A DNA stretch of 64,000 bases from a virus. Its lineage: Duplodnaviria > Caudoviricetes. Numbering within the stretch: the first letter of the stretch is position 1; each line of letters starts with the position of its first letter. Under the pieces are notes generated by a model that was given only the letters and a program-made list of their open reading frames with translations, had not been told where the DNA came from and searched no databases. Shown piece after piece: positions 1-43,832 of the stretch. Both the position numbers and the translations under genes were made by a program. Where the stretch lies: positions 102,767-166,766 of the IMG/VR virus record IMGVR_UViG_3300037249_000709; one strand, written 5' to 3'.

Positions 1-2
1 TC

Positions 3-797
3 TCCATTCTTAAAAGCAAAATGGAGGCTTGGCTTACTAAAAACACAAAAGCCGCAAAAACTTATGGTGCAGCCATTAAAGGACTTATCTCCGAATTAGA
101 CTCTATGGCTGCAAAGGGCGGAGTTTTAGCCACTGAGAACAAACGCATTGCAAGTAGCTTTAAACAAATTGATGCCGCTGCCGGAGCTGCTGGACTTAAA
201 GGAAGAACATTTTTTCAATCAGTCGGAAAAGCTGCTCAAAGTCTTGGGAGATACTTTGGAGTATCAACGCTTATTTATCGCTCGATTGCGACATTAAGAC
301 AAGGAATTAACGATGTCATTGATTTGGACACGGCGTTGGTGGACTTGCAGAAAACGGCAAAAGCTACGAGCGAGGAATTGTCAAATTTTTATTATGATGC
401 TAATGAGCAAGCAAAGGAATTTGGAGTAACAACAAAAGAAATTATTCAGAGTGCAGCGGACTGGTCACGTCTTGGTTACTCTTTGAATGATTCTAAAACA
501 ATGGCGCAAGTTTCATCTATATTCAAATCTATTTCTCCTGGAATGGATATTGATACAGCAACAAATGGACTTGTTAGTACAATGAAGGCTTATGGTATAG
601 AAGCGAACGATGCGCTTGATGGAATTGCAAGTAAAATTAACGCAATAGGTAATAGTCAAGCGTTAAGTAACAATGATATTGTTGATTTCCTAACAAGGTC
701 ATCATCGGCTATGGCAGAAGCAAATAACTCATTGGAACAAACTATTGCAATAGGTACGGCTGCAACAGAAATAACTCAGGACGCAGCAAGTGTCGGT
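3..797 (+). CDS. Phage tail tape measure protein, exon A (5' end lies outside the window)
   Basis: Frame is open from the window edge. TP901-type tape measure core motifs are present (LDTALVDLQK, SAADWSRLGY, INAIGN, NSLEQTIA). Ends at ...ASVG, just before the group I intron P1 helix. Confidence 0.9.
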
Positions 798-2105
798 AAG
801 TAGCGTTGCCGACAATAAAAATAGCTATATCGGTTAAAATCCTGCGGAGGGCAAGACCGAGGAAAGACTTTTTTAGATGTTTATTTATAAAATTCGGAAT
901 AAGGGAAGTGAAATATGAAGAAAAATAGAGTGATATGTAATTGCGATAATTGCGGAAAAGAGATAAGTAAAAAGAAAAGTGAATACGAAAAATCAAAACA
1001 TCATTTTTGTAGTGTAGAATGTCATTCAAAATGGCAGGATAAAAAACTGATGGTTGAGTGCGAAAACTGCGGTAAATCAGTTATACAAACATTCACTCAG
1101 TATAATAGAGCAAATCATCATTATTGTAGTAATAAATGTCAACGAGAATTTCAACACAAACAGAAAACCGAAAAAAGAGTATGTGAAATATGTGGAGTGG
1201 AGTTTGAGGTTAGCAAACTTTCTAAGCAAAAACTATGTTCAGTAGATTGCCAGCACGAATGGCAAAAACTACAAATCGGGGAATTAAGTCCACATTACAA
1301 TAGAGAAACCGTAAAATGTGAATATTGTAATAAGGAATATGCAGTGCCACAACACAAAATAAAAAATGGGCAACATTTATTGTGTTCTGTGGAATGCAAA
1401 CGAAAATGGTATTCAGAGGTGTGGTCGCAAGACGAAGATTGGAAAAAAGAGTCCAGACTTAGAGCAGTCAGAATATTACAAGATGGATTGATTAACACAA
1501 ACACTAAACCACAAAGAGATGTGAATGCTATATTAGATAATTTAAATATACCATATATTAATGAAAGTTCATTTAAATATTACGCCGTTGATAACTATTT
1601 GCCTAACCAAAATTTAATAATTGAAGTAATGGGAGATTATTGGCACGGAAACCCCTAAGATTCGGTTATAATTATAATGAAATACAGGCTAAAAGAATAC
1701 GGCAAGACAAAGCTAAACACACCTATATTAAAAAATATTATGATATTGAAATTTTATATCTTTGGGAAAAGGATATAAATGACAATCCAGTTCTATGTGA
1801 AAAGATTATTAAAGAATACATAGATAATCACGGTATATTAAACAATTATCAATCTTTTAATTATCGTATTGAAAATAATGAATTGAAGCTAAATACAGAT
1901 TTAGTTAAAGCATATTTTGAACAATAACATCTAAAAAGAATCCGTAGAGACTGTAATACTCACTATGGCAACATAACGAGTTCCGCTATTGACAGAAGAT
2001 ACAGTCCGAACTGCAACTATAACCTAAATGAAATTGCAGAGTTAGCCAGAAATGACTAACCGCCGCTTATGCGGTCAGTACCGAAAGGGAAAGTAACAGA
2101 TATTG
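798..2105 (+). ncRNA. Group I intron 1 in the tape measure gene, carrying an endonuclease ORF
   Basis: P1 GTCGGT(792-797)/GCCGAC gives a U.G pair at the 5' splice site. IGS AGCGTT pairs with 3' exon AACGCT (P10). P7 is GACTG(1949-1953)/CAGTC(2002-2006) with J8/7 AAGATA. Terminal G at 2105. Splicing gives in-frame ASVG|NALKTISMRIRG. Confidence 0.92.
915..1927 (+). pseudogene. Intron-encoded homing endonuclease (CxxC..CSxxC zinc-finger repeats plus Vsr/DUF559-like nuclease domain), frameshifted at about 1655
   Basis: ORF 915-1658 has four CxxC...CSxxC repeats and IIEVMGDYWHGNP. The nuclease domain continues in the -1 frame (1640-1927, DKAK...ILYLWE). The ORF is enclosed by the stem TTTTTAGATGTT/AACATCTAAAAA. 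Confidence 0.75.
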
Positions 2106-2679
2106 AACGCTTTAAAAACAATAAGTATGCGCATCCGCGGCTATGACGAGGAAACTTCGGAGTACATAGGTGATGTCGAAGTCCTAAGCGGTAAAATCGC
2201 AAATGTTACAAAAACAGCGTCAAGTCCAGGTGGTATCTCACTATTTACAGATGCAAGTAAAACCGAATATAAATCGACTTATGATTTATTAAAAGATATA
2301 TCCGAGATATATGATGAACTTACGGACAAGCAGCAAGCAGAACTTCTTGAATTACTTGCAGGCAAGAGACAAGGAAATGTAATTGCGTCAATTTTAAATA
2401 ACTTTGAAGCCGCAGAAAACTCAATGACAACAATGGCTCAAAGTGCTGGTTCTGCAATGAACGAAATGGGCATCATTGAAGAATCGCTTGAATACAAACT
2501 TAATGCCCTAAAAGAAACAGGCGTTGGTGTGTTCCAGAATCTCTTTGATAGAGGCGATTTAGGAGCAGCCATCGAATTATTAACAGGCGTATTAGCCGCC
2601 ATCGACAAAATAACCGAAAGTCTTGGTCTATTCGGTACGACCATAGCAACTATCGGAATTGTCAAATTCATTAAGAACT
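2106..2679 (+). CDS. Tape measure protein, exon B
   Basis: NALKTISMRIRG...STYDLLKDISEIY...LAGKRQGN is the continuation of the tape measure core. It is bounded by predicted splice sites on both sides. Confidence 0.9.
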
Positions 2680-3261
2680 TCGATTAACTCATCAGGGTTA
2701 CATTATACACTTCCCAGAGTGTTTAATTGGTCTATTATGGGGGAGAAATTGTCATAATGGCGACAACATTCAATTCCATAAGAAGTAAAGTTCTAAAACT
2801 AAGCAAAAGGAGAAATTGCCTGAACCTATAATGCTCACTACACCATATATTGGTAGCCGAAAAACAAGGCAAATAAGTCAAACCGATGCACACGGGAGTG
2901 AGATTTCTACGGCTAAAAAATAATGCCGGACAGATATATAATTAGGAACTGGCAGCGAACCTACCACCGTTTAGGAGTACAGATAATCCGATAGGGTCAA
3001 AAGTTGCGCAAGCAATGTCGGGATAAGGGTCTAACTGGTAGGAACGTTCAGAGAGCATTATTCCTTGCAGTGAATAAAAGCCATATTTTATTCGCTGTTA
3101 ATGTATGTTCCAAAGTGCAAAAATAAATTCACCGTCGAAACGTTTAGCTTTGTTGTATAAGTTGGTGTGGAGGTGCTGGAAAGGTTTGTAGTGACCCCGT
3201 TTACAACTATGTCTTTAAGATATAAAACTACAATCACAATAATGCTAATGGAGGGAAAATT

Positions 3262-3441
3262 ATGAACGATAATAAAGAAATTAAAGATAATAAAGAGTCC
3301 TTAAATAAGGTCGTAGACTTGATATGTGGGTATATTACAAAGAACACCGATGAAACAAAGGACTATAACCGTTTTGTCGAGGATATGAAAAATGACGAGA
3401 AATTTCAAGAGATAATTAAAGAGATGACAGAACACATATAA
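3262..3441 (+). CDS. Small hypothetical protein (59 aa), intron cargo 1
   Basis: GGAGG RBS before the ATG. Translates as MNDNKEIKDNKESLNKVVDLICG...EMTEHI and is followed by a GCTGTAG/CTACAGC hairpin. Confidence 0.55.
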   Translation: MNDNKEIKDNKESLNKVVDLICGYITKNTDETKDYNRFVEDMKNDEKFQEIIKEMTEHI

Positions 3442-3495
3442 AAAAGCTGTAGCCACGCGACTACAGCCTTATGATTTGAAATAGAAGGGATATAT

Positions 3496-3684
3496 ATGGA
3501 TAACAAATACCATGCACAAGTGTACATCAAAATTTTAGACAAATGGGAAGAATATATTGCCAAACTAAAAGAAGAAAAAGGCGATAGCGATATTTCTCTT
3601 GAAAAAGCTATGGATTATGAAATCGAATTTGGAGTAATCCCGTTTGGTTGGCGACTTATGAATCATAGAGATGACATTGAGTAA
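3496..3684 (+). CDS. Small hypothetical protein (62 aa), intron cargo 2
   Basis: AGAAGGGA RBS and ATG start; ORF track. Confidence 0.55.
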   Translation: MDNKYHAQVYIKILDKWEEYIAKLKEEKGDSDISLEKAMDYEIEFGVIPFGWRLMNHRDDIE

Positions 3685-3700
3685 TTATAAGATTCTATTT

Positions 3701-4168
3701 TTAGCGAAACCTTTTTACGCACCTCTCAAAAATTAAAATTGTTTCTTCGATAGTTGCATTTGAGCCAAAGCCAGCAATAGATGCGGCATTAACACCCAAT
3801 TTATTTGTAAAAGTGTTTACTAAACGCCAGCCTTCCTGTCCGCGTCTTTTTAACTCGTAACATAAAGTGGCAGTATCTATTTCTCCAGTGGGTTTATCAC
3901 GAATAACGACAACATCATATTCGTAAAGGTCATTTATTTCAAGTTTTTTCGCAAGAGATGAGTCTTGTGCTAATTGGAAATTTCTATGAATGTTCTCTCT
4001 TTGTCTGTTATCAATACTTTGTTGTTCTAATCTTGTTGTTCTTTGTTGTTCGCGACGTTTGATTGTAGCAGGAGATATAACCTTTCTGTAGTTATAGTCA
4101 TAATTACAATTAAAGCAAACATCTGCATTGTCGCCAATCCACTCGTTGCAATTCGGACATCTTTTCAT
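3701..4168 (-). CDS. Zinc-ribbon plus DUF4177-like protein, antisense intron cargo 3
   Basis: N-terminal CPNC...CFNC. The C-terminal YEY...L...G.EGW.LV...LIFER pattern resembles DUF4177. Has an RBS (GGGGTGGTG) and its own promoter. Confidence 0.7.
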   Translation of the reverse strand: MKRCPNCNEWIGDNADVCFNCNYDYNYRKVISPATIKRREQQRTTRLEQQSIDNRQRENIHRNFQLAQDSSLAKKLEINDLYEYDVVVIRDKPTGEIDTATLCYELKRRGQEGWRLVNTFTNKLGVNAASIAGFGSNATIEETILIFERCVKRFR

Positions 4169-4190
4169 ACTATCACCACCCTTTTATACT

Positions 4191-4219
4191 ATTTTAATAT
4201 ATTTAAGCATTTATGTCAA
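4191..4219 (-). promoter_or_regulatory. SigmaA-type promoter for the antisense cargo gene
   Basis: Minus strand TTGACA-17 nt-TAAAAT, ending 22 nt upstream of the ATG at 4168. Confidence 0.7.
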
Positions 4220-4234
4220 TATGATTCCTCCTTG

Positions 4235-7200
4235 TTGATTTGCAATTAAAAACTCTGGGACTTCAAGGTGCAAACAGTATTGACATAGTAAGAATTGCTA
4301 CCCAAAATATGTCAAACGCAGATTTTGCGGCAGCATTATCGACTACTGCTCTAACAGAAGCAGAAAGGTTACAGCTTATAGCCGGACGGCAGCTCACAGA
4401 TGCAGAGTTAGAAAAAGCACTGGCAACCAATACATCGAGTGCTGCAAATGTTGGAGCTACCGTAACCACATTTAGCTTGGCAGGAGCATTTAATAGTTTA
4501 AAGACAGCTATTAAGGGCGTGGGTATTGCAATGATGAGCAACCCTATAACTGCCATTATCACAGTTGCTCTTACAGCTATTACCGTTATTTCGCGAGTAA
4601 AAGCCCATATAGATAACGTTGCCACTGAAATTAAAGAAAAATCTGAGGAAGCAGCAAACTCAATACAAGAAGTTAGCGATGCATTTCAAAAAACGACAGA
4701 AACTGTGGATAACATTGGAAAAAGATTTGCAGAATTAGCACAAGGAGTAGATTCGCTAACTGGAAAGAATATTTCTTTAACCACAGATGAATATTCTGAA
4801 TTTTTGAATTTAAGTAATCAGTTGGCAGAATTATTTCCTTCCTTAACAAGACATTATGACGAGAATGGAAATGCCATTGTAAATTTAAGTGGAGATGTAG
4901 ACACTATTGTTGGTAGTCTAAAGAATCTTGTAGATGTTCAACGCCAGGTTGCCAACCAAAATATTGCCGAGCAACTTCCCGATTTGTACGCAGGAACTAT
5001 CCAAAAATCAAGAGAATATCAAGCTGATGCAAAAATGTATCAAGATGAAATTCAGGGTACACTTTCCGCATGGGAAGGGATAAATGGTGGATTTATCAAT
5101 GGAAATATGCTAACAGTTCGTGCGCCTGTTGATACATTGGAAGAGCTTGAAAAAGTTGAGCAAATATATCTATCTGTATTAGATGATTTAGGTATTGCCT
5201 ATCAATATGCAGACAACTTAGATGGTATAAGATATAAAATCAATTCCTTTAGTAATATGAGTGCAAGTGAAATTTCAAATATGACTTCTCAAATTGAGAG
5301 TAGCGTAAAAGAGGCTTTACTTGCCGATACATCGTTAAATAAATATTTTGATGATTCATATAGGGATATTGAAAAATATAGTGGTCTTGTTGAGTCGAGC
5401 ATTAATAAGAACAAATCGAATTGGGCAGGTTTAACGCAAGCGCTCACGTCTTGGTTGTCTACTGATACCACCTATCAGGCATTAAGCGATGAAATGCAGT
5501 CCATTGTTCAGATGATGGTAAACAATGTGGATTTTGCTGAACTCGACTTTGATACTTGGGAAGAAGCGTCGCAGTATATTATAGATAGCATCATTGTTCC
5601 AATTTCTGAGGCTTCTGACGAAGTGCAGCAAGCGTATATCGACTTATTTAGTTTAGACTCCAATCTTTCTTATTCTACATATATGGCAAATGCGCAAAAG
5701 GCAATCAGTGCCATTGCAAGTGGTTTAGGAAAATCTTATGAAGAAATCGCCAAAGCAGTAGGATATGATAATACCCTTGATGATTTGCAAAAGAAAAGGG
5801 ATAAAGTTTTAAATAGCTTATTTTCATACGGCGAAATTCGTTGGGGTGGCGGAGCAAATAAAGCAAACTCGCTTTCCGCTGCGCAAATCAACCAAGCATA
5901 TAGTTATATCACTAATTACGGTGTTAAAACTTGGAAAGAACTCCAATCCGCTTTTGCTAATAATACTTATGGGCAGCTTATAGACCTTGAATCCGAAACG
6001 GAAAGTTTAAAGAACTTTAATACGGCAATTAGCGAGTCGGCATCTGCAACTGGTATGAGCGCAGATTCTCTAACTAATTTAAGCGAAAGATATAAAGACG
6101 TAGAAGGTCACGAAGCTGCTTTATCTAATCTTTACACTAAAACTTCAACAGGCATTCGTGTTAATGTTAAGTCCGCTCGTGAGCTTGAAAAAGCATATAA
6201 TAGTCAGAAGAAAGAACAGCAAATCAAGCAAATAGATTCCTTGAAAAAGAAATACAAGGAATTAACGGACGAAATGCGAGGAACGACCGATGCAACGAAA
6301 TATGCTGAGTTGTATAATCAACGGGCAAACATTGCTGCTCAAATAGATGATGCTACAAGATTAGCCTCACAATACCAAGCATTAGCCTCTTATTATAATG
6401 CTTGGCAAGCGGCAATGAGTTCAAGCAATCCCAGTGACCCATATAGCAACATTCAGTCTGGTTATGATAAAATTGGGGAACTAATCGAGCAAGGCTGGGC
6501 ATACAAAGATGAGGTTGACACTTATTTAGACCTATTACTAAATCCAGACGTTCGCACAAATGATAATGTGGCGGATTATGATAAGTTGGGAGAAAAAATA
6601 GGTAATACAAATTTTTCAATCAAAGATTTCTTTGTTACAGATGACGATGGAAATCTGGTGTCTGATGGAGTATTCAATTTTCTTGATGCTATCAAGGAAG
6701 GATTAGGAGAGGATTATGTAAAAATTCTTTCTGATGGAACATATTGGTGGGATTTAACTGGTGACAAAGCAGAAGCTGTTGCGAAGTATTTAGGTGTATC
6801 AACTGAGTTTGTTGATTGGATGCAACAAGCATTAAAAGATATAACCGGGGACTTTACCGAAGAATCAATGTTCGGTGATTTAGTTATTGATGCGAAAGAT
6901 GCGGAGGAAGCTCTGTCGGGTCTTTTAACAAAAATAGATGATTCCAAAAACAAATATAATCTGGGTAATATTTATTTAAACTCCAATAATTTAAAAGATG
7001 TTAATCAGTATATTGAAAATATCGGAAACCTTATAAAGGACAACTTTTTAGGAAAAGATGGCAAAATCGACATCTCGGTAAATGGTGCAGAAGAAGCTAC
7101 CATTGTTTTAACGGCACTAATTCAGCAAAAAGCCGAATTGACTGCTCCTGCTATAATGTCTATTGATACAGAGGCATTAGACTCCACGGACGTACAGCTT

Positions 7201-10200
7201 GCAAATGCTATCGAGTTATTACAACAATTTATTACTTTGTCTGTACAATTAGAAACACAAAAATCGCTCGGTTTAGATACCACTAATACACAAACACAGT
7301 TGGTTAATGTGTCTAATACTCTTAATGGTCTACCCAAAGAGATAAAAACAAAAATAGGTATTGATGGAGAAGATGTTTCTAAATCTATTACAAATATTGC
7401 CAACACTAATGTGACTGCCGGGGTTAAACTAAAAGACGGAGATATTGATACCGTAAAGAAAACCATCGCAGGAATTGACCCAAAGACCATTGAATTGCTT
7501 ACCAACTCCGATGATACGATAGATGACCTTAATGAGGTCGAGAAATTCACGATTCACGACAAGCCGTTTAAGGTAAAGATGAGCGGTTATTCTGCCGCAA
7601 TGGGAAATATGCGTAATCTGGATTCATTCCAATTTGATACCAAAGTTATTACTATTAGAACAGAATATATTGATGGTGACATAGATGGTTCTGGCAGAGC
7701 GCAAGGCACAGCTCATGCAAGAGGAACAGCATTTGTGTGGGGGTCTGCATATCAAAGTGGAGATTGGGGAGTCAAGAAAGATGAAGTTGCGTTGGCATCT
7801 GAGGTCGGCACTGAAATAGTTGTACGAGATGGTCATTTCTTTACAATCGGAGAAAATGGTGCAGAGTTCTTCCATTTCAAGAAGAACGATATTGTATTTA
7901 ACGCTGAACAGTCAAGACAACTTTTGGAGAATGGTAAAATAACAAATGGCAAAAAGCGTGGAGTGGTATATGCAAACGGCACAGCCTATGCAAACGGAAC
8001 TCCATATGCAAGTGGTGGCGGCAGCACTGGAACAGCCAGCAGACGAAGAACTACTATTGAACAACAAGTCGAAGAAGCTACGGCAGAGGAAGTTTCAAAT
8101 GTCATTCCAGATGTAGATGATTATAATGCCGATGATAGCTTTAAATACATAGACCGCGTAGAGATTTTACTTGACAGAATACACCGAAAAATCGACGCCG
8201 TTAAGGATGCAATTAGTGACGTATTTAGTTTGTGGAGTGATAGAGGTGACAATATCACAAAACAAATTGGAAATATAACCGATGAAATTGGAACACAAGA
8301 AGCCGCAGCAAAACGATACCTTGAAGAAGCTCGCAAACAAATTGACAAATACGGATTAGACCCTGACTGGGTAAAGTCTATAGAAGAAGGCAATATTGGT
8401 TTTATTTATTTAACCAACCTTGATGAATTACACGAGGGCTACGAGGAATACAAGAAATGGTACGAAAAGTATCTCGATGCTCGTGACACGATTCAAGGGT
8501 TAAACAATGACTTATCTCAACTTTACAAAGATGAGTTTGATAATATAAAGAGTAATTATGATAATCAAATTGACCTCAATGAATATTTGCAAGATTCAAA
8601 CGAAAAAACATATACTCAAAGCACAACTTACTTTGATGATATGCGCAATATTTATCAAGGGAATTTAGGTTTACTAACAAAGGAAGCGCAAGAACTCGAA
8701 GCTCAACTACAAAAAGCAGTAAATGAAGGTAAAATCGAGGAAGGCTCGGAAGCATGGCAAGAAATGCGGAAAGACATCAATGATGTCAAAAAGGAAATAG
8801 CTTCAACTAATGTAGAACTTGCCAAGTTGTATACAGAGCAATTTGAATATATTGAAAATAATTATAAAAACCAGATAGACTCTTATCAGAGTCTTAACGA
8901 TGCCAACGAAAAGAATTTTACCGCAACCACTAATTACTACAAAGAAATGCGGGAAATATCGAAGAAAACATTGACAGCACAAGAGGATGAGCTTGCCGAG
9001 CTTGAAGATGAATTTGCTAAAGCTATGGATTCCGGCAGAATAGAGGAAGGCTCAGAAGCATGGTACAAAATGCGCAGTGCTATTGATGATACTAAGCGAA
9101 GCATTGCCGCAACCCGTGTAGAACAAAAGCAGCTATACCTGGATGAGTTCAACTATATGCAAGACAACTATAAAAATCAGTTGTCGCTATATGAGCATAC
9201 CGCAAATATGTATAGTAAACGAGCGACTTCTATGGAAACACGTGGCTATGTAACAAGCAGTACGCTTTTAAACAAGCAAGCCGAATTACAGCAAAAGAAT
9301 TATTCGCTTTTGAGAGAAGAACTTATTTCCTTGGAGGACGAATATGCAAGAATAATGGCAACTGGCGAAATTGAGAAATATAGTGCAAAATGGTATGAAC
9401 TAACCAATAGTATCAATGCCGTTAAAGAAGCTATGTACGATTCGAGAATAGAAGCCGAAAAACTCTTTAAGGCTATGGAGCAAGTTGACGAAGATAAATT
9501 TGCTTTGCAGCAAAGTATGATTTCGCAACAGCAGGATGAGAGCGACTTCTTTATAAATCTAATGAGCTTTACCGATTTGCACAACAAAAAAGGAACGCTC
9601 ACAGATGCCGGGCTTGCAACGCTTGGACTTCACAATTACAATGTTGATGTTAATAGCACGCTAAAAAGGGGTTATGATGAAGAAATTGCTCGTGTTGACG
9701 AACGGTATAGACTTGACCCATATAATATAGATTATTTGAAGTACAGACAAGAGCTGGTTCAAAATCGTCGCGAGGCTGTTATCGCCATTGAGAACGAAGA
9801 AAAAGCAATGATTTCTCTTGCTGAAAATGGCATTAAATTGGAACTCAACAAATTAAAAGAGCTTATTCAAACATACAAAGATGGTATAGACCAAGCAAAA
9901 GACTTGTATGACTATTCCAATCAGATTTCCGACAAGACGAAGAAAATTACCGACTTGCAGAAACAAATTTCTGCTTATGCTGGCGATACCTCAGAGGAAA
10001 CAAAAGCCATCGTTCAAAAGTTGCAGGTGGACATAACCGATGCACAAAAAGACCTTAACGATACAGAATATAGTCGTATGGTGACAGACCAAAAGAAGCT
10101 ATTAGATAGCCTTTATGACGAATATGAAGCGTTTTTAAATAGTAGGCTTGATGATAGAAACGCACTTCTTAATGACTTGAAAAATTCTGTTAATAGTGTC

Positions 10201-11361
10201 CCTGGTGCAATCCACGAATCTCTCACCGAAGTGGCTAATGCGGTTGGCGTTCCGCTTTCAGATGGTATGAAAAACACTTGGGAACAAGCGGCAAAAAACA
10301 TTGAAGCGTGGAACGCAACTCACGTAGCAGACCAACAAATAACTGAGCAAGCACTATTAGATACCTCTAATTCGTGGGCGACTTTTGGAGAAGGACTGAA
10401 CACTCGTCAGGACTTCTTGAATACGCAAGAGGGCGAAATTGTACTTGCTACAAATAATACCACCCAAGGTATCAACAAGGTGTGGGGCGACATTGGCGTA
10501 GCCGGCGGTCAAACGCTCGTAGAAAAAGCCGATGAAGATTATGTAAAAATGCGCGGTGATATGACCAATGACAAAAACGATATTGTTGGAGATATTACTA
10601 CGGGTATAACCAATGGTGTGTCCGATATTGATGGGAATGATAGCAATATAAATTCTAATCTAAGCACGGCAAATGATACTTTAAAGGATATTAAAGATTT
10701 TGTTGAGAAGATACAAGAACGTGCAGAAGAAGCAGCTACTCCTTATATGGGAGATGTTAATTTGGATGATAATGTTGACTCTGCCGATGCATTAAAGGTG
10801 TTGAGAGGCGCTGTTGCTCTGGAGAGATTAACGGAGAGTGAAAAAGCTCTTGCAGATGTTAATGGTGATGGTCAGATTGATAGCGCAGATTCACTAATGA
10901 TATTAAGGATGGGTATTGGACTTGAAGATAAAGTCAAGGTAAAAGCGTTTAGTACGGGTGGACTAAATGATACCCCAGGATTAGCAATGCTTCACGGAAC
11001 GAAAGAAAAACCCGAACTTGTTTTAAATGCTAACGACACAAAGAATTTTATCAATTTCAACGATACATTACGCGAGATGGAAAGAAGTCAAACACTTGAT
11101 TTTATGAGTGGTTATGCGGGCATCGAAGCACCACCGCTTCAATTAATAAAGTTGCCATCTTTTGCATCGGGTATGAGTAGTCCAACAATGAGTCAAGATG
11201 TTAGCATTACTAATAACTTTGCGATTGAGCGTGTGCTTGATTATAATGATATAGTTAATAAAATGCGAAACGATAAAAAGTTTGGAAAAGTAATACAAGA
11301 TATGAATATGAGTCAATTAGGTTATGGTAGCGATATGAGCAAAAATAAATATAGGTGGTAA
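4235..11361 (+). CDS. Tape measure protein, exon C (with C-terminal dockerin-like domain)
   Basis: Long helical, coiled-coil ORF with no good RBS or start. It has a hydrophobic segment, about 100-aa repeats (IEEGSEAW), and AFSTGG/ELVLNA motifs. The spliced product is at least 2831 aa within the window. Confidence 0.88.
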
Positions 11362-41987: not shown

Positions 41988-43832
41988 GTGCGCCAGTTCG
42001 GTGCATAAACTATAGTCTGGTGAAAGTCCAGACCTGATAAAGCCCAGCAAGCAGTCAGTACATAGTCTTGGAGCCGAAGCCGTGAGGTTAGGTTTAAGCG
42101 TAGGTGGTGGAGCACAAGAGCCGCAATGCAAAAGCGTGAAGCCGTTGAGCCTCGTAAAGTATATTCAGTGCGGAAGCCGATATGGTGCTTGACATCGCAG
42201 GCAGCATATATTATATCGTTAAGCGAGATATAGTATATTCCGTCGGGGTCGCAGGGCGTGGCGAGTGTGCAATGTAGTTTATGCATACCTGGGAGGTCTG
42301 ATAAATTCCTGCAAAGGTAGGGGAACCGAAAAGGGTAAAACTTGGAGGAACTCCAATGGTTTATCAGAAGTCGGACTGTCTCATAGTAGTGACGAAAGCT
42401 GTGAAAGCAGTTGGAGCGAAGGGGACAGCAAGTAATCGTTCTCAAAATAGAAACATTTGGACACAGGAGGTCAGAACAAATGGAAACGGAAATGATGAGA
42501 ATAAGCAGTCAGTCTCGAAAATACGTCAAAGTAGAAAACTTGATGTGCAAGGTCAGTGCACAGACGCTTATGCAGCAGCATAAGAAGCAGAAAGCGAAAA
42601 AGGCGGTAGGTGTAGACCACGTTGACAAGGCTAAGTATGATGAACACGCAGCCGAGAATATCAGCGACTTGGTGCGGCGAATGAAGACATTTCAATATAA
42701 GCCGTTACCAGTAAGACGGTCATACATTGACAAAGGCAACGGAAAACAACGTCCTCTTGGGATTCCTGCGTATGAAGATAGATTGGTACAGGGTGCAATG
42801 GCAACCGTACTAAATCAGGTATATGAACAAAGGTTTCTGGAGTGTTCATATGGATTCCGTCCTAACCGCTCGGCTCACGATGTAGTAGCCTACATAAGTC
42901 AGGCTATAATGGTCAAGAAGATAAACTATGTACTGGAAGCGGACATCAAGGGCTTCTTTGATAACGTGAACCACGAGTGGCTAATGAAATTTCTTGAACA
43001 TGATATAGCCGATAAGAGGTTTCTGCGATATGTAAAACGCTTTCTGATTGCAGGAGTAATGGAAGGAACAGAGTACCATGACAGTGACAAAGGCACACCA
43101 CAGGGTGGATTAATTTCGCCAATACTGGCAAATGTGTATTTGCACTACTCATTGGATTTGTGGATTAGATATGTTAAACCTATGCTGAAAGGTGAAGTTT
43201 ACTATGCTCGGTATGCAGATGACTTTATAATCATGCTTCAATACAAGGAAGACGCATATAGAGTGATGAAGGCATTGGTGCATCGACTTGCAAAATTTTC
43301 TCTGGAACTTGCGATGGATAAGACACGCATTATACCGTTTGGAAGATATGCGAAGATAAAAGAGGAATTTGACTTTCTCGGGTTTACATTCTTCAATACG
43401 AAAACACGAGGGGGAAAATATCGTGTCGGAATCCGCTCCAGTAAAAAGAAAATCAAGCAAAAGCGACAAAAGGCTAAGGAGTGGATACGAGGACGTCTAA
43501 ACAAAGACGTAAGAGAGACCATGATGAAGCTGAGAATTAGCTTGATAGGACACTATAATTATTATGGAGTTAATGGGAATTATTTTCAATTGAAGAGTTT
43601 CTACAACTATTTGCGATACACAACATTTAAAATGTTATGCCGCAGAAGTCAAAAGGCGTATATGACTTGGGAGAAGTTTCAGCGGATATGGGATTATTAT
43701 ATCCCGAAGCCGCACATAACCAAAAATATATGGAACTGGAATGTAAAGATTACTTGAAGAGCCGTATGCCTTAATAGGGCACGTACGGTTCTCTGGAGGG
43801 GCGGCGGCAGTAATGCCAGCCGTCTACTCGAC
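41988..43832 (+). mobile_element. Group II intron with RT/maturase ORF, inserted antisense in a phage gene
   Basis: 5' end GTGCG at 41988. Domain V is GAGCCGTATGCC..GGGCACGTACGGTTC and domain VI ends CTACTCGAC at 43832. EBS1 GCGAGA (42223-42228) pairs with IBS1 TCTCGT; EBS2 AGTATATT (42158-42165) pairs with IBS2 AATATACT. Confidence 0.93.
42480..43757 (+). CDS. ltrA: Group II intron reverse transcriptase/maturase, no endonuclease domain
   Basis: RPLGIP, SYGFRP, DIKGFFD, GTPQGG, YADD and FDFLGF motifs plus an X domain (GHYNYY). GGAGG RBS before 42480. Confidence 0.93.
   Translation: METEMMRISSQSRKYVKVENLMCKVSAQTLMQQHKKQKAKKAVGVDHVDKAKYDEHAAENISDLVRRMKTFQYKPLPVRRSYIDKGNGKQRPLGIPAYEDRLVQGAMATVLNQVYEQRFLECSYGFRPNRSAHDVVAYISQAIMVKKINYVLEADIKGFFDNVNHEWLMKFLEHDIADKRFLRYVKRFLIAGVMEGTEYHDSDKGTPQGGLISPILANVYLHYSLDLWIRYVKPMLKGEVYYARYADDFIIMLQYKEDAYRVMKALVHRLAKFSLELAMDKTRIIPFGRYAKIKEEFDFLGFTFFNTKTRGGKYRVGIRSSKKKIKQKRQKAKEWIRGRLNKDVRETMMKLRISLIGHYNYYGVNGNYFQLKSFYNYLRYTTFKMLCRRSQKAYMTWEKFQRIWDYYIPKPHITKNIWNWNVKIT

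Follow-up and report, generated by a model that had tools for sequence, protein, structure and literature searches.

The last 64 kb of the 166,766-base-pair (bp) IMG/VR virus record IMGVR_UViG_3300037249_000709, rated 100% complete by CheckV and called here the window (64,000 nucleotides, nt; record positions 102,767 to 166,766), contains a phage tape measure gene in three exons, A, B, and C, with two inserts between them. The second insert, occupying plus-strand positions 2685–4242 (1558 nt; first base U2685, terminal guanosine G4242), is very probably a group I intron with splice sites 2684|4243, named here intron 2. Its ribozyme lies at the 5′ end, and the region between the ribozyme and the remote 3′ splice site appears to hold an antisense transcription unit for a zinc-ribbon/DUF4177 protein, not a homing endonuclease gene. 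We assign this full explanation, including an independently expressed antisense cassette, a probability of roughly four in five.

The plus-strand frame of the tape measure gene stops in the window at KNFD-TAA (2685–2687), and the next frame, of 2373 codons, opens at TTG 4240. As a sequence-only reading of this DNA had noted, the frame resumes without a ribosome-binding site. No Shine-Dalgarno sequence precedes exon C in any lineage. The profile phrog_4211 is aligned by its positions 551–771 to window positions 3–803, by 772–942 to 2103–2687, and from 960 onward to 4240 and beyond; since the profile coordinates continue across both gaps, the pieces are one gene. It begins with an ATG preceded by a ribosome-binding site, 1098 nt upstream of the window. 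Exon A (1–797, plus strand), of which the last 265 of 632 codons fall in the window, carries phrog_4211 positions 551–771 and part of a Pfam PhageMin_Tail match that is divided between exons A and B. Exon B (2100–2684, plus strand; 195 codons) ends with ..FIKNFD, and exon C (4243–11361, plus strand; 2372 codons) starts with QLKTLGLQG. The spliced gene would encode 632+195+2372 = 3199 amino acids, and the exon frames are unbroken over these 3199 codons. The blastn search of GenBank phages with window positions 1–8000 gave no match, and tblastn found distant tape measure proteins only.

The position of the junction follows from relatives. Seventeen loci were obtained when viral contigs were scanned with exon B, and all three exons were compared with them by tblastn. 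In seven of them an insert stands at exactly the same point, and further cases were added later (G001/L025, L026, L027, L035, and L038), so that a homologous 5′ element is found at the same codon in at least 10 lineages, with ribozyme identity of 69–99% at the nt level. In the intron-less relative L012, exons B and C are contiguous, reading ..SFIKNFGELKLLGIQG.., and the intron-less target is ATTAAGAACTTCGAT|CAATTAAAA. Joining U2684 to C4243 gives KNFD|QLKTLGLQG, which is colinear, residue for residue, with KNFGELKLLGIQG of L012. At the intron-bearing loci the 5′ exon ends with G(A/G)U in all cases and the 3′ exon opens with C(A/G)(A/U)U, while the triplet preceding the 3′ exon is ATG, TTG or, in G001, TAG, with the G alone being invariant.

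Both exons can be recognized by one internal guide sequence (2722–2732, plus strand). Its part UUGGUC (2727–2732) forms P1 with G2682 A2683 U2684 of the exon and U2685 A2686 A2687 of the intron, placing the U2684.G2730 wobble at the cleavage site. The U.G wobble at the 5′ splice site is present in all 10 sequences compared, and the adjacent A-to-G change still pairs with U. P10 is formed by 2722–2729 (UUUAAUUG), exactly complementary to the first eight bases of exon C (4243–4250, CAAUUAAA). Across the eight lineages tabulated, P10 consists of 3–8 contiguous pairs. Its guide strand changes in step with the 3′ exon, most lineages having CAA/UUG, L001 having CGA/UCG, and L035 having CGU/ACG. No other single argument for splicing is as strong as P10. 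The 5′ exon also takes part in an additional helix, found by RNAalifold, in which AGAACUU of the exon (2674–2680) pairs over 7 bp with AAGUUCU of the intron (2788–2794). In nine sequences this helix does not vary, and in L035 a G-C pair is replaced by A-U in a compensatory manner. Combined with P1 and P2, the helix would make a three-way junction that secures the 5′ exon at two places. We know of no description of such an extra exon-binding helix in group I introns, although no specific search for one was made.

The conserved part of the insert comprises the first ~440 nt (2680–3126), with 76–85% identity by blastn, and the remainder is not conserved. RNAalifold, run on eight sequences, first gave many compensated pairs, and the group I structure was then assigned by hand from the alignment; the RNAalifold helices 51–54/64–67, 146–149/525–528, and 468–472/479–483 (columns of alignment A1) were replaced by P1, the P3 pseudoknot, and P7. 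In the hand-built structure, 98.1% of cells in 10 sequences are paired and 30 pairs are changed on both sides; with seven sequences the values are 98% standard pairs and 23 pairs changed on both sides. No shuffle out of 500 was as good, and sliding the partners by 1–3 columns left 36–46% of cells paired, with at most 6 pairs of this kind. Directly after the 5′ splice site a covarying hairpin (2685–2700) is found, four of its six pairs being changed on both sides. It is followed by a P2/P2a domain (2735–2781; helices 2735–2742/2774–2781 and 2749–2753/2762–2766) and by the catalytic core with P3–P8 (2807–3111), so that the ribozyme from P1 to P8 is contained in the first 427 nt of the intron. 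P3 pairs AAGGAG (2807–2812) with UUCCUU (3061–3066). The joining segment J3/4, AAA, precedes P4 (2817–2822/2949–2954; (U)UGCCUG), and AAA followed by UUGC is a group I hallmark. P5 (2825–2828/2943–2946) has a branched extension, with AA at both J4/5 and J5/4, and P6 (2955–2957/3045–3047) has extensions as well, with a GNRA loop at 3008–3011. The R-like stretch reads GUUCAGAGAGCA. P7 consists of G3051, the bulged A3052, and GAGCA (3053–3057), paired with UGUUCC (3106–3111); P8 (3067–3079/3086–3098) has 13 bp; and J8/7 is UAAUGUA (3099–3105). G3051, bulged A3052, and G3053-C3110, the last presumably being the guanosine-binding pair, are conserved in all 10 sequences. Changes on both sides of pairs occur in P4, P5, P5a, P6a, P6c, and P8. 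The fold contains a P4–P6 domain, a P3–P7–P8 pseudoknot, and A-rich J3/4, J4/5, and J8/7. The sequence-only reading had placed a full group I core at 2680–3111. A conserved, covarying core was indeed found at 2685–3111, with the 3′ strand of P7 ending exactly at 3111; that reading's placement of P1 and the guide sequence had to be given up. A search with an nhmmer profile of the ribozyme detected no second copy in the 166-kb genome.

How the 3′ splice site could be brought to a ribozyme 1.1 kb away is addressed by a predicted long-range helix resembling P9.0. RNAcofold pairs 3113–3125 with 4200–4212 on the plus strand, as an 11-bp helix enclosing all the cargo of the window. Analogous pairings of J7/9 with the 3′ end, differing in sequence, were predicted by the same program in L002, G001, L001, and L027, for example AAAGUAC/GUACUUU in G001, AAGUGCA/UGUAUUU in L002, and GUACAA/UUGUAU in L001. 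In the shorter introns of L001, L002, L013, and G001 a second predicted stem, of 11–21 pairs, encloses the open reading frame (ORF), and one paired change distinguishes this stem in L001 from that in L002. RNAduplex, applied to the region after P7 against the 3′ end, returned long, loose duplexes that were non-significant (z from -2.4 to +1.3).

The cargo occupies the 1.1 kb between P7 and the terminal G (3112–4242) and consists of three ORFs, two sense and one antisense, as the sequence-only reading had described; its statement that no recognisable homing endonuclease is present also held. The sense ORFs are orf59 (3262–3441, 59 amino acids, with a GGAGGG ribosome-binding site) and orf62 (3496–3684, 62 amino acids). 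Neither has a family match in Pfam, PHROGs, or NCBIfam. In L028/L029 the orf62 frame is kept, the nt identity being 82–83% and the codon differences comprising 11 synonymous and 20 non-synonymous ones; in L026 gene calling gives just 46 amino acids at this position. The antisense gene (3701–4168, minus strand) encodes 155 amino acids with an N-terminal CPxC..CxxC zinc ribbon, a 45-residue helix, and a C-terminal beta-alpha-beta-beta DUF4177 domain (Pfam PF13783; residues 82–129, 29.8 bits against a cut-off of 25), a domain also present in its homologues. The nearest Atlas clusters are DUF4177/zinc-ribbon proteins. The structure model of this protein has a predicted local distance difference test (pLDDT) score of 81, and in fold searches the best hits (Foldseek E = 0.07; VIA-align Z = 5.3) were to generic beta-alpha-beta-beta folds, nothing nuclease-like. 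No profile match was obtained for any of the three ORFs to LAGLIDADG, GIY-YIG, HNH, His-Cys box, PD-(D/E)xK, or EDxHD nucleases, a new nuclease class being possible, nor was there a match of the cargo proteins to transposases or TnpB, or a significant match of the cargo ORFs in PADLOC, NCBIfam, or PHROGs. With no family, defence-system, or fold match, the earlier suggestion of superinfection exclusion or host modulation as the role of the cargo is pure conjecture.

The antisense gene is accompanied by signals of its own. A sigma-70-type promoter, TTGACA-17-TAAAAT (4191–4219, minus strand), with 11 of 12 matches to the consensus, is directed into the intron, its start lying 23 nt from the 3′ splice site. 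A ribosome-binding site, GGGTGGTGA, can be read at 4174–4182 of the minus strand, and a G+C-rich hairpin at 3443–3470 resembles a terminator when read on the minus strand, where a 12-bp stem precedes a T run; read on the plus strand it is weak. Promoter, ribosome-binding site, gene, and hairpin appear to constitute a self-contained antisense transcription unit, and the gene is probably expressed independently of the tape measure transcript.

The content of the intron differs among relatives. The search with the 155-amino-acid protein returned 22 proteins at E ≤ 0.001, the window's own cluster included. The four homologues examined in context, in L026–L029, all lie antisense between tape measure pieces and show 53–58% identity. 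In L027 the DUF4177-type antisense gene stands alone, and in L026 and L028/L029 the same two small ORFs are found beside it; the identity of orf59 in L026 and L028 is 98.9% at the nt level, that of the antisense gene just 68–80%. In L001, L002/L004, L013, L017, G001, L035, and L038 another antisense ORF is found instead, of 98–161 amino acids, with two to four zinc ribbons, the C-terminal sequence ..QWHCNNCKSDF, and a family of more than 600 members. A weak Pfam match of this ORF to the LITAF-like membrane-dipping zinc ribbon (E = 0.46) was not used. The antisense ORF is the sole intron ORF in most lineages. The expectation that a conserved ribozyme with variable cargo would occur at one site in related phages was therefore confirmed: the codon is the same in at least 10 lineages and the cargo types differ. 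Nevertheless, the cargo is not arbitrary, because in every copy inspected an antisense zinc-ribbon gene starts ~50–110 nt from the 3′ splice site (74 nt in the window), and this gene may be part of the element's own biology.

Seven genomic contexts of the multi-zinc-ribbon family were sampled. Those of L035/L036 and L038 contain the same intron. In L030–L032, at the same tape measure site (IKNVG|), a G+C-richer 5′ RNA of ~540 nt with CAGAGAGCA is followed by two to five antisense zinc-ribbon genes; in L030 (region ~2531–5434, reverse complement) these include three 101-amino-acid zinc-ribbon genes, at least one of them a family member. In L037 the cargo homologue is free-standing, beside a CI-like repressor and an integrase, in L033 it lies among unrelated bacterial genes, and in L039 it is next to a tape-measure-like gene, with no upstream tape measure piece or ribozyme found within the locus. 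The nhmmer ribozyme profile gave no match in L030–L033, L037, and L039. By their neighbourhoods, the homologues outside the intron context in L037 and L033 look moron-like.

The mechanism proposed from these observations is as follows. The ribozyme, in the first 427 nt, would have two grips on the 5′ exon, one through the short P1 (GAU/GUC, including the U.G wobble) and one through the extra 7-bp helix (AGAACUU/AAGUUCU). The 3′ splice site, 1.1 kb further on, would be chosen by G4242, the 8-bp P10, and probably the P9.0-like helix, which is predicted by modelling to loop out the cargo. Splicing, which presumably takes place, would join U2684 to C4243 and yield ..FIKNFD-QLKTLG.. in the 3199-amino-acid tape measure protein. 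The looped-out part would be no homing endonuclease gene but an antisense unit that brings its own signals (promoter, ribosome-binding site, terminator hairpin) and gives a zinc-ribbon/DUF4177 product, and the two sense ORFs would be readable from unspliced or excised intron RNA only.

Several observations weigh against this explanation. P1 has just three exon pairs (GAU/GUC). P3, P6, and P7 are fully pairable but nearly invariant, which makes them compatible with the fold, not proven by covariation. The P9.0-like helix of the window is a prediction, the closest relatives being too similar there for covariation. The plus-strand hairpin at 3446–3467 could hinder transcription through the intron, and antisense transcription might interfere with splicing. 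An ATG precedes exon C in four lineages, which is above chance expectation. Finally, searches of the window, both inserts, the whole genome, and seven relatives with the Rfam model Intron_gpI (RF00028) stayed empty, whether the gathering score or E ≤ 10 was applied; the covariance-model search suggested earlier as a check did not support the intron. The model seems to be insensitive to these introns, since the HNH-bearing first insert was missed as well, and the result does not seem to indicate intron absence.

Among close relatives of the phage, some have the intron and others lack it. The ribozyme of G001 is 76% nt identical to that of the window, whereas the exons are just 30–42% identical in amino acid sequence. 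The 18 nt on each side of the intron are 72–100% identical across lineages and the next 60 nt 47–68%, except for the 5′ flank of the near-identical L026, although P1, P10, and the extra helix also demand some of this conservation in the flanks. Such a pattern of presence, conservation, and flanks would be expected from homing or exchange at a conserved site, and the intron appears to be horizontally mobile; the ribozyme had been called domesticated, a description which the patchy presence, the ribozyme being more conserved than the exons, and the near-identical flanks of ~18 nt do not support. On the 5′ side of the cargo, L026 matches the window at nt identities from 87% (last 450 nt of exon B) to ~99% (ribozyme, orf59), but its exon C is just 26% identical in amino acid sequence, which places a recombination boundary inside the intron. 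The region after P7 together with orf59 (3112–3441) is ~99% identical among the window, L026, and L028 despite the divergence of the antisense gene and exon C, reflecting either strong nucleotide constraint or recent module exchange.

An accessory, moron-like role of the cargo is conceivable at slightly under even odds. It could be argued instead that the zinc-ribbon protein encoded antisense serves the mobility or maintenance of the element itself, either as a new homing protein or by binding DNA or RNA as the partner of a trans-acting nuclease. Besides the signs of mobility themselves (patchy presence, the contrast of ribozyme and exons in G001, conserved flanks), this would fit with the antisense ORF being the sole one in most introns and always starting near the 3′ splice site, with the common binding of nucleic acids by zinc ribbons, and with the existence of antisense homing endonuclease genes in group I introns of nuclear genes (PMC3679873). 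In this phage a nuclease acting in trans could come from the HNH gene of intron 1, which lies 585 nt upstream, but most relatives are without intron 1. We consider a mobility factor unlikely, if the most serious of the alternatives: no nuclease motif or fold was detected (Pfam, PHROGs, NCBIfam, PADLOC; Foldseek E ≥ 0.07; VIA-align Z ≤ 5.3), two unrelated C-terminal architectures occur at the same position, homologues of the commoner type exist outside the intron context (with repressor and integrase neighbours, or among unrelated bacterial genes), and the conservation of exon flanks could likewise stem from the P1, P10, and extra-helix pairings.

The remaining alternatives concern splicing itself and are much less probable. 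The ribozyme might be decayed and not splice, the phage being defective, or it might depend on a host or phage splicing factor, which would be in line with the short P1, the remote 3′ splice site, and antisense transcription across the intron. This is improbable, as none of the core pairings or junction nucleotides is disrupted and they show compensatory evolution across 10 lineages, the exon frames are open over 3199 codons, and the record is rated complete. Still less credible is a truly split tape measure gene, with exon C translated from TTG 4240 (ATG in relatives) and the 5′ element being a non-splicing structured RNA. A possible start codon (ATG or TTG) does precede exon C in nine of 10 lineages, and Rfam gave no group I match. 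However, the 3′ junction of G001 is TAG|CAATTT, with no in-frame start codon nearby, which rules out independent translation of exon C there; no lineage has a Shine-Dalgarno sequence before the triplet, the P10 pairing covaries over the first three positions of exon C, no group I core feature is missing, and the intron-less relative encodes one continuous protein. A start codon of its own for exon C, prompted by the ATG of four lineages, had been considered and was rejected on the TAG|CAA junction of G001 and the lack of a ribosome-binding site. The least tenable alternative is the join first proposed, 2679|4235, with the guide sequence at 2691–2699 and P10 on TTGAT: AACU/GGUU and UUGAU/AUCAG can pair in the window alone and the join is in frame (KNFDLQLK, read as KNF-DLQLK), but 2691–2699 is the loop and 3′ strand of the 2685–2700 hairpin that covaries in relatives, TTGAT does not precede the 3′ exon of relatives, whose equivalent sequences are unable to form that P1, the product is one residue longer than the intron-less homologue, which only U2684|C4243 matches, and the alternative P10 has 8 bp and covaries.

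Phage group I introns are textbook selfish elements whose ORFs are homing endonucleases, as in the T4 td, nrdB, and nrdD/sunY introns, the SPO1 DNA polymerase intron, and the capsid and tail introns of cluster J mycobacteriophages. In the T4 nrdD/sunY intron the core is at the 5′ end and the 3′ splice site lies remotely after the ORF, as in intron 2. With these endonuclease-bearing introns intron 2 shares a group I ribozyme in an essential gene, patchy distribution among relatives, and an ORF in a peripheral loop. It differs from them in having no recognisable endonuclease, in a main ORF that is antisense and has its own promoter, in its varying cargo, in a core to which RF00028 is blind, and in the extra exon-binding helix. 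Another group I intron housing a non-endonuclease gene is that of the fungal mitochondrial rnl gene, which carries rps3; there it is a single fixed host gene in sense orientation, while intron 2 has a variable antisense cassette. The introns of the Moonbeam DNA polymerase and terminase genes also carry homing endonuclease genes (PMC4299906), and introns in phage tail genes are on record for cluster J (PMC3706429). In the nuclear ribosomal DNA (rDNA) intron Dir.S956-2 of Didymium, an antisense homing endonuclease gene is expressed from its own signals (PMC3679873); the protein gene on the strand opposite to the ribozyme is shared with intron 2, but ORFs of that type encode His-Cys box endonucleases in eukaryotic rDNA, and intron 2 encodes a zinc-ribbon/DUF4177 protein in a phage structural gene.

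In architecture, intron 2 is closest to the IStrons (CdISt1, BcISt1), in which a group I intron is fused to an IS200/IS605 or IS607 insertion sequence element; the ribozyme there belongs to subgroup IA2 and contains P7.1/P7.2, and the ORFs serve IS200/IS605 or IS607 transposition (PMC4227781). Common to both are the 5′ ribozyme, non-endonuclease ORFs that appear to lie after P9, the 3′ splice site at the far end, and variable ORF content. The inverted-repeat stem predicted to enclose the ORF in relatives would likewise be IStron-like, and Firmicutes and their phages are the hosts in both cases (PMC4227781). The insertion of intron 2 after a T-rich ..TCGAT is reminiscent of TTGAT, the target of IStron group A. 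On the other hand, intron 2 has just 3 nt (3058–3060) between P7 and the 3′ strand of P3, no TnpA or TnpB, an antisense ORF, and a 3′ end that is not TCAG or CGG, and it occupies one fixed site as a single genomic copy, compared with many for IStrons.

Full-text literature searches on introns together with morons or accessory genes turned up no description of such an arrangement. One ribozyme, located at a single codon of the tape measure gene, is found in many uncultured phages, together with antisense zinc-ribbon genes that have promoters but no match to any endonuclease family, and the cargo varies from copy to copy. Tentatively, and with odds of only about one in three in mind, a widespread undescribed class of composite mobile elements in Firmicutes phages can be proposed, comprising a divergent group I ribozyme, a two-part 5′-exon binding site, and a P9 loop serving as a portable slot for antisense cassettes that are transcribed independently and encode one to several zinc-ribbon proteins. 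If true, it would be a parallel to IStrons in which accessory or novel homing genes replace the transposon and the ribozyme renders insertion into the essential tape measure gene harmless. If the intron splices, the ribozyme would be a natural means of housing genes with their own expression in an essential late gene without a cost, which is of relevance to the search for new anti-phage or homing functions and to the engineering of "safe-harbour" introns. The recombination breakpoints inside the intron are of interest for phage genome mosaicism, and the extra 7-bp exon-binding helix is a directly testable ribozyme feature. Since standard covariance models miss this class of introns, wrong annotations of structural genes split in this way are probably widespread.

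Intron 2 is one of several inserts. Intron 1 (798–2099, plus strand; boundaries read from the sequence, terminal G at 2099) is separate and HNH-bearing. It has a P1-like pairing of GUCGGU (792–797) with GCCGAC (808–813) and no Rfam match; its ORF at 915–1658 matches a PHROG of HNH endonucleases, and the HNH-like ORF seems to be split over two frames, 915–1658 and 1640–1927. Intron 1 is missing in most relatives, in which exons A and B are contiguous, and L003/L005 have an insert at the same site. A group II intron at 42023–43832 is indicated by Rfam matches to group-II-D1D4-6 (42023–42258, plus strand, 119.5 bits) and to domain V/VI, Intron_gpII (43757–43832, plus strand, 40.1 bits), which would make three self-splicing introns of two classes within the 64-kb window. 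Relatives carry inserts of 0.5–1.9 kb at other positions of the tape measure gene: L012 is interrupted at 2506–3518, 3628–4100, and 4306–6001, L017 at 3136–4962, and L014–L016 at exon B residue ~95. This phage group has an insertion hotspot in its tape measure gene. In L007, L008, and L010, at ~6573, unrelated sequence (..GCT|TGACCCGAAATCATGGGTGA..) breaks the gene at the homologous codon (IKSIA*), and a different element may be present at the same site there; L006 and L009 have no interruption at this codon.

A few further observations concern the tape measure gene and its surroundings. In public assemblies, gene callers set the start of exon C at downstream ATGs. In L001, upstream of the gene, positions 2376–2442 match the Rfam skipping-rope RNA with 39.2 bits (gathering score 36.7). 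A tyrosine integrase gene (Phage_integrase) lies directly upstream of the tape measure gene in L027 (8287–9345), L035 (7135–8187), and L038 (6920–7432); this odd position suggests that these phages are temperate. The C-terminal part of the protein encoded by exon C (~10600–10800) contains dockerin-like repeats (DVNGDGQIDSADSLMILR and a first copy just before it), and Pfam Dockerin_1 has a weak match in the L028 homologue, a hint of either a clostridial host that produces cellulosomes or a tail tip with an unusual function.

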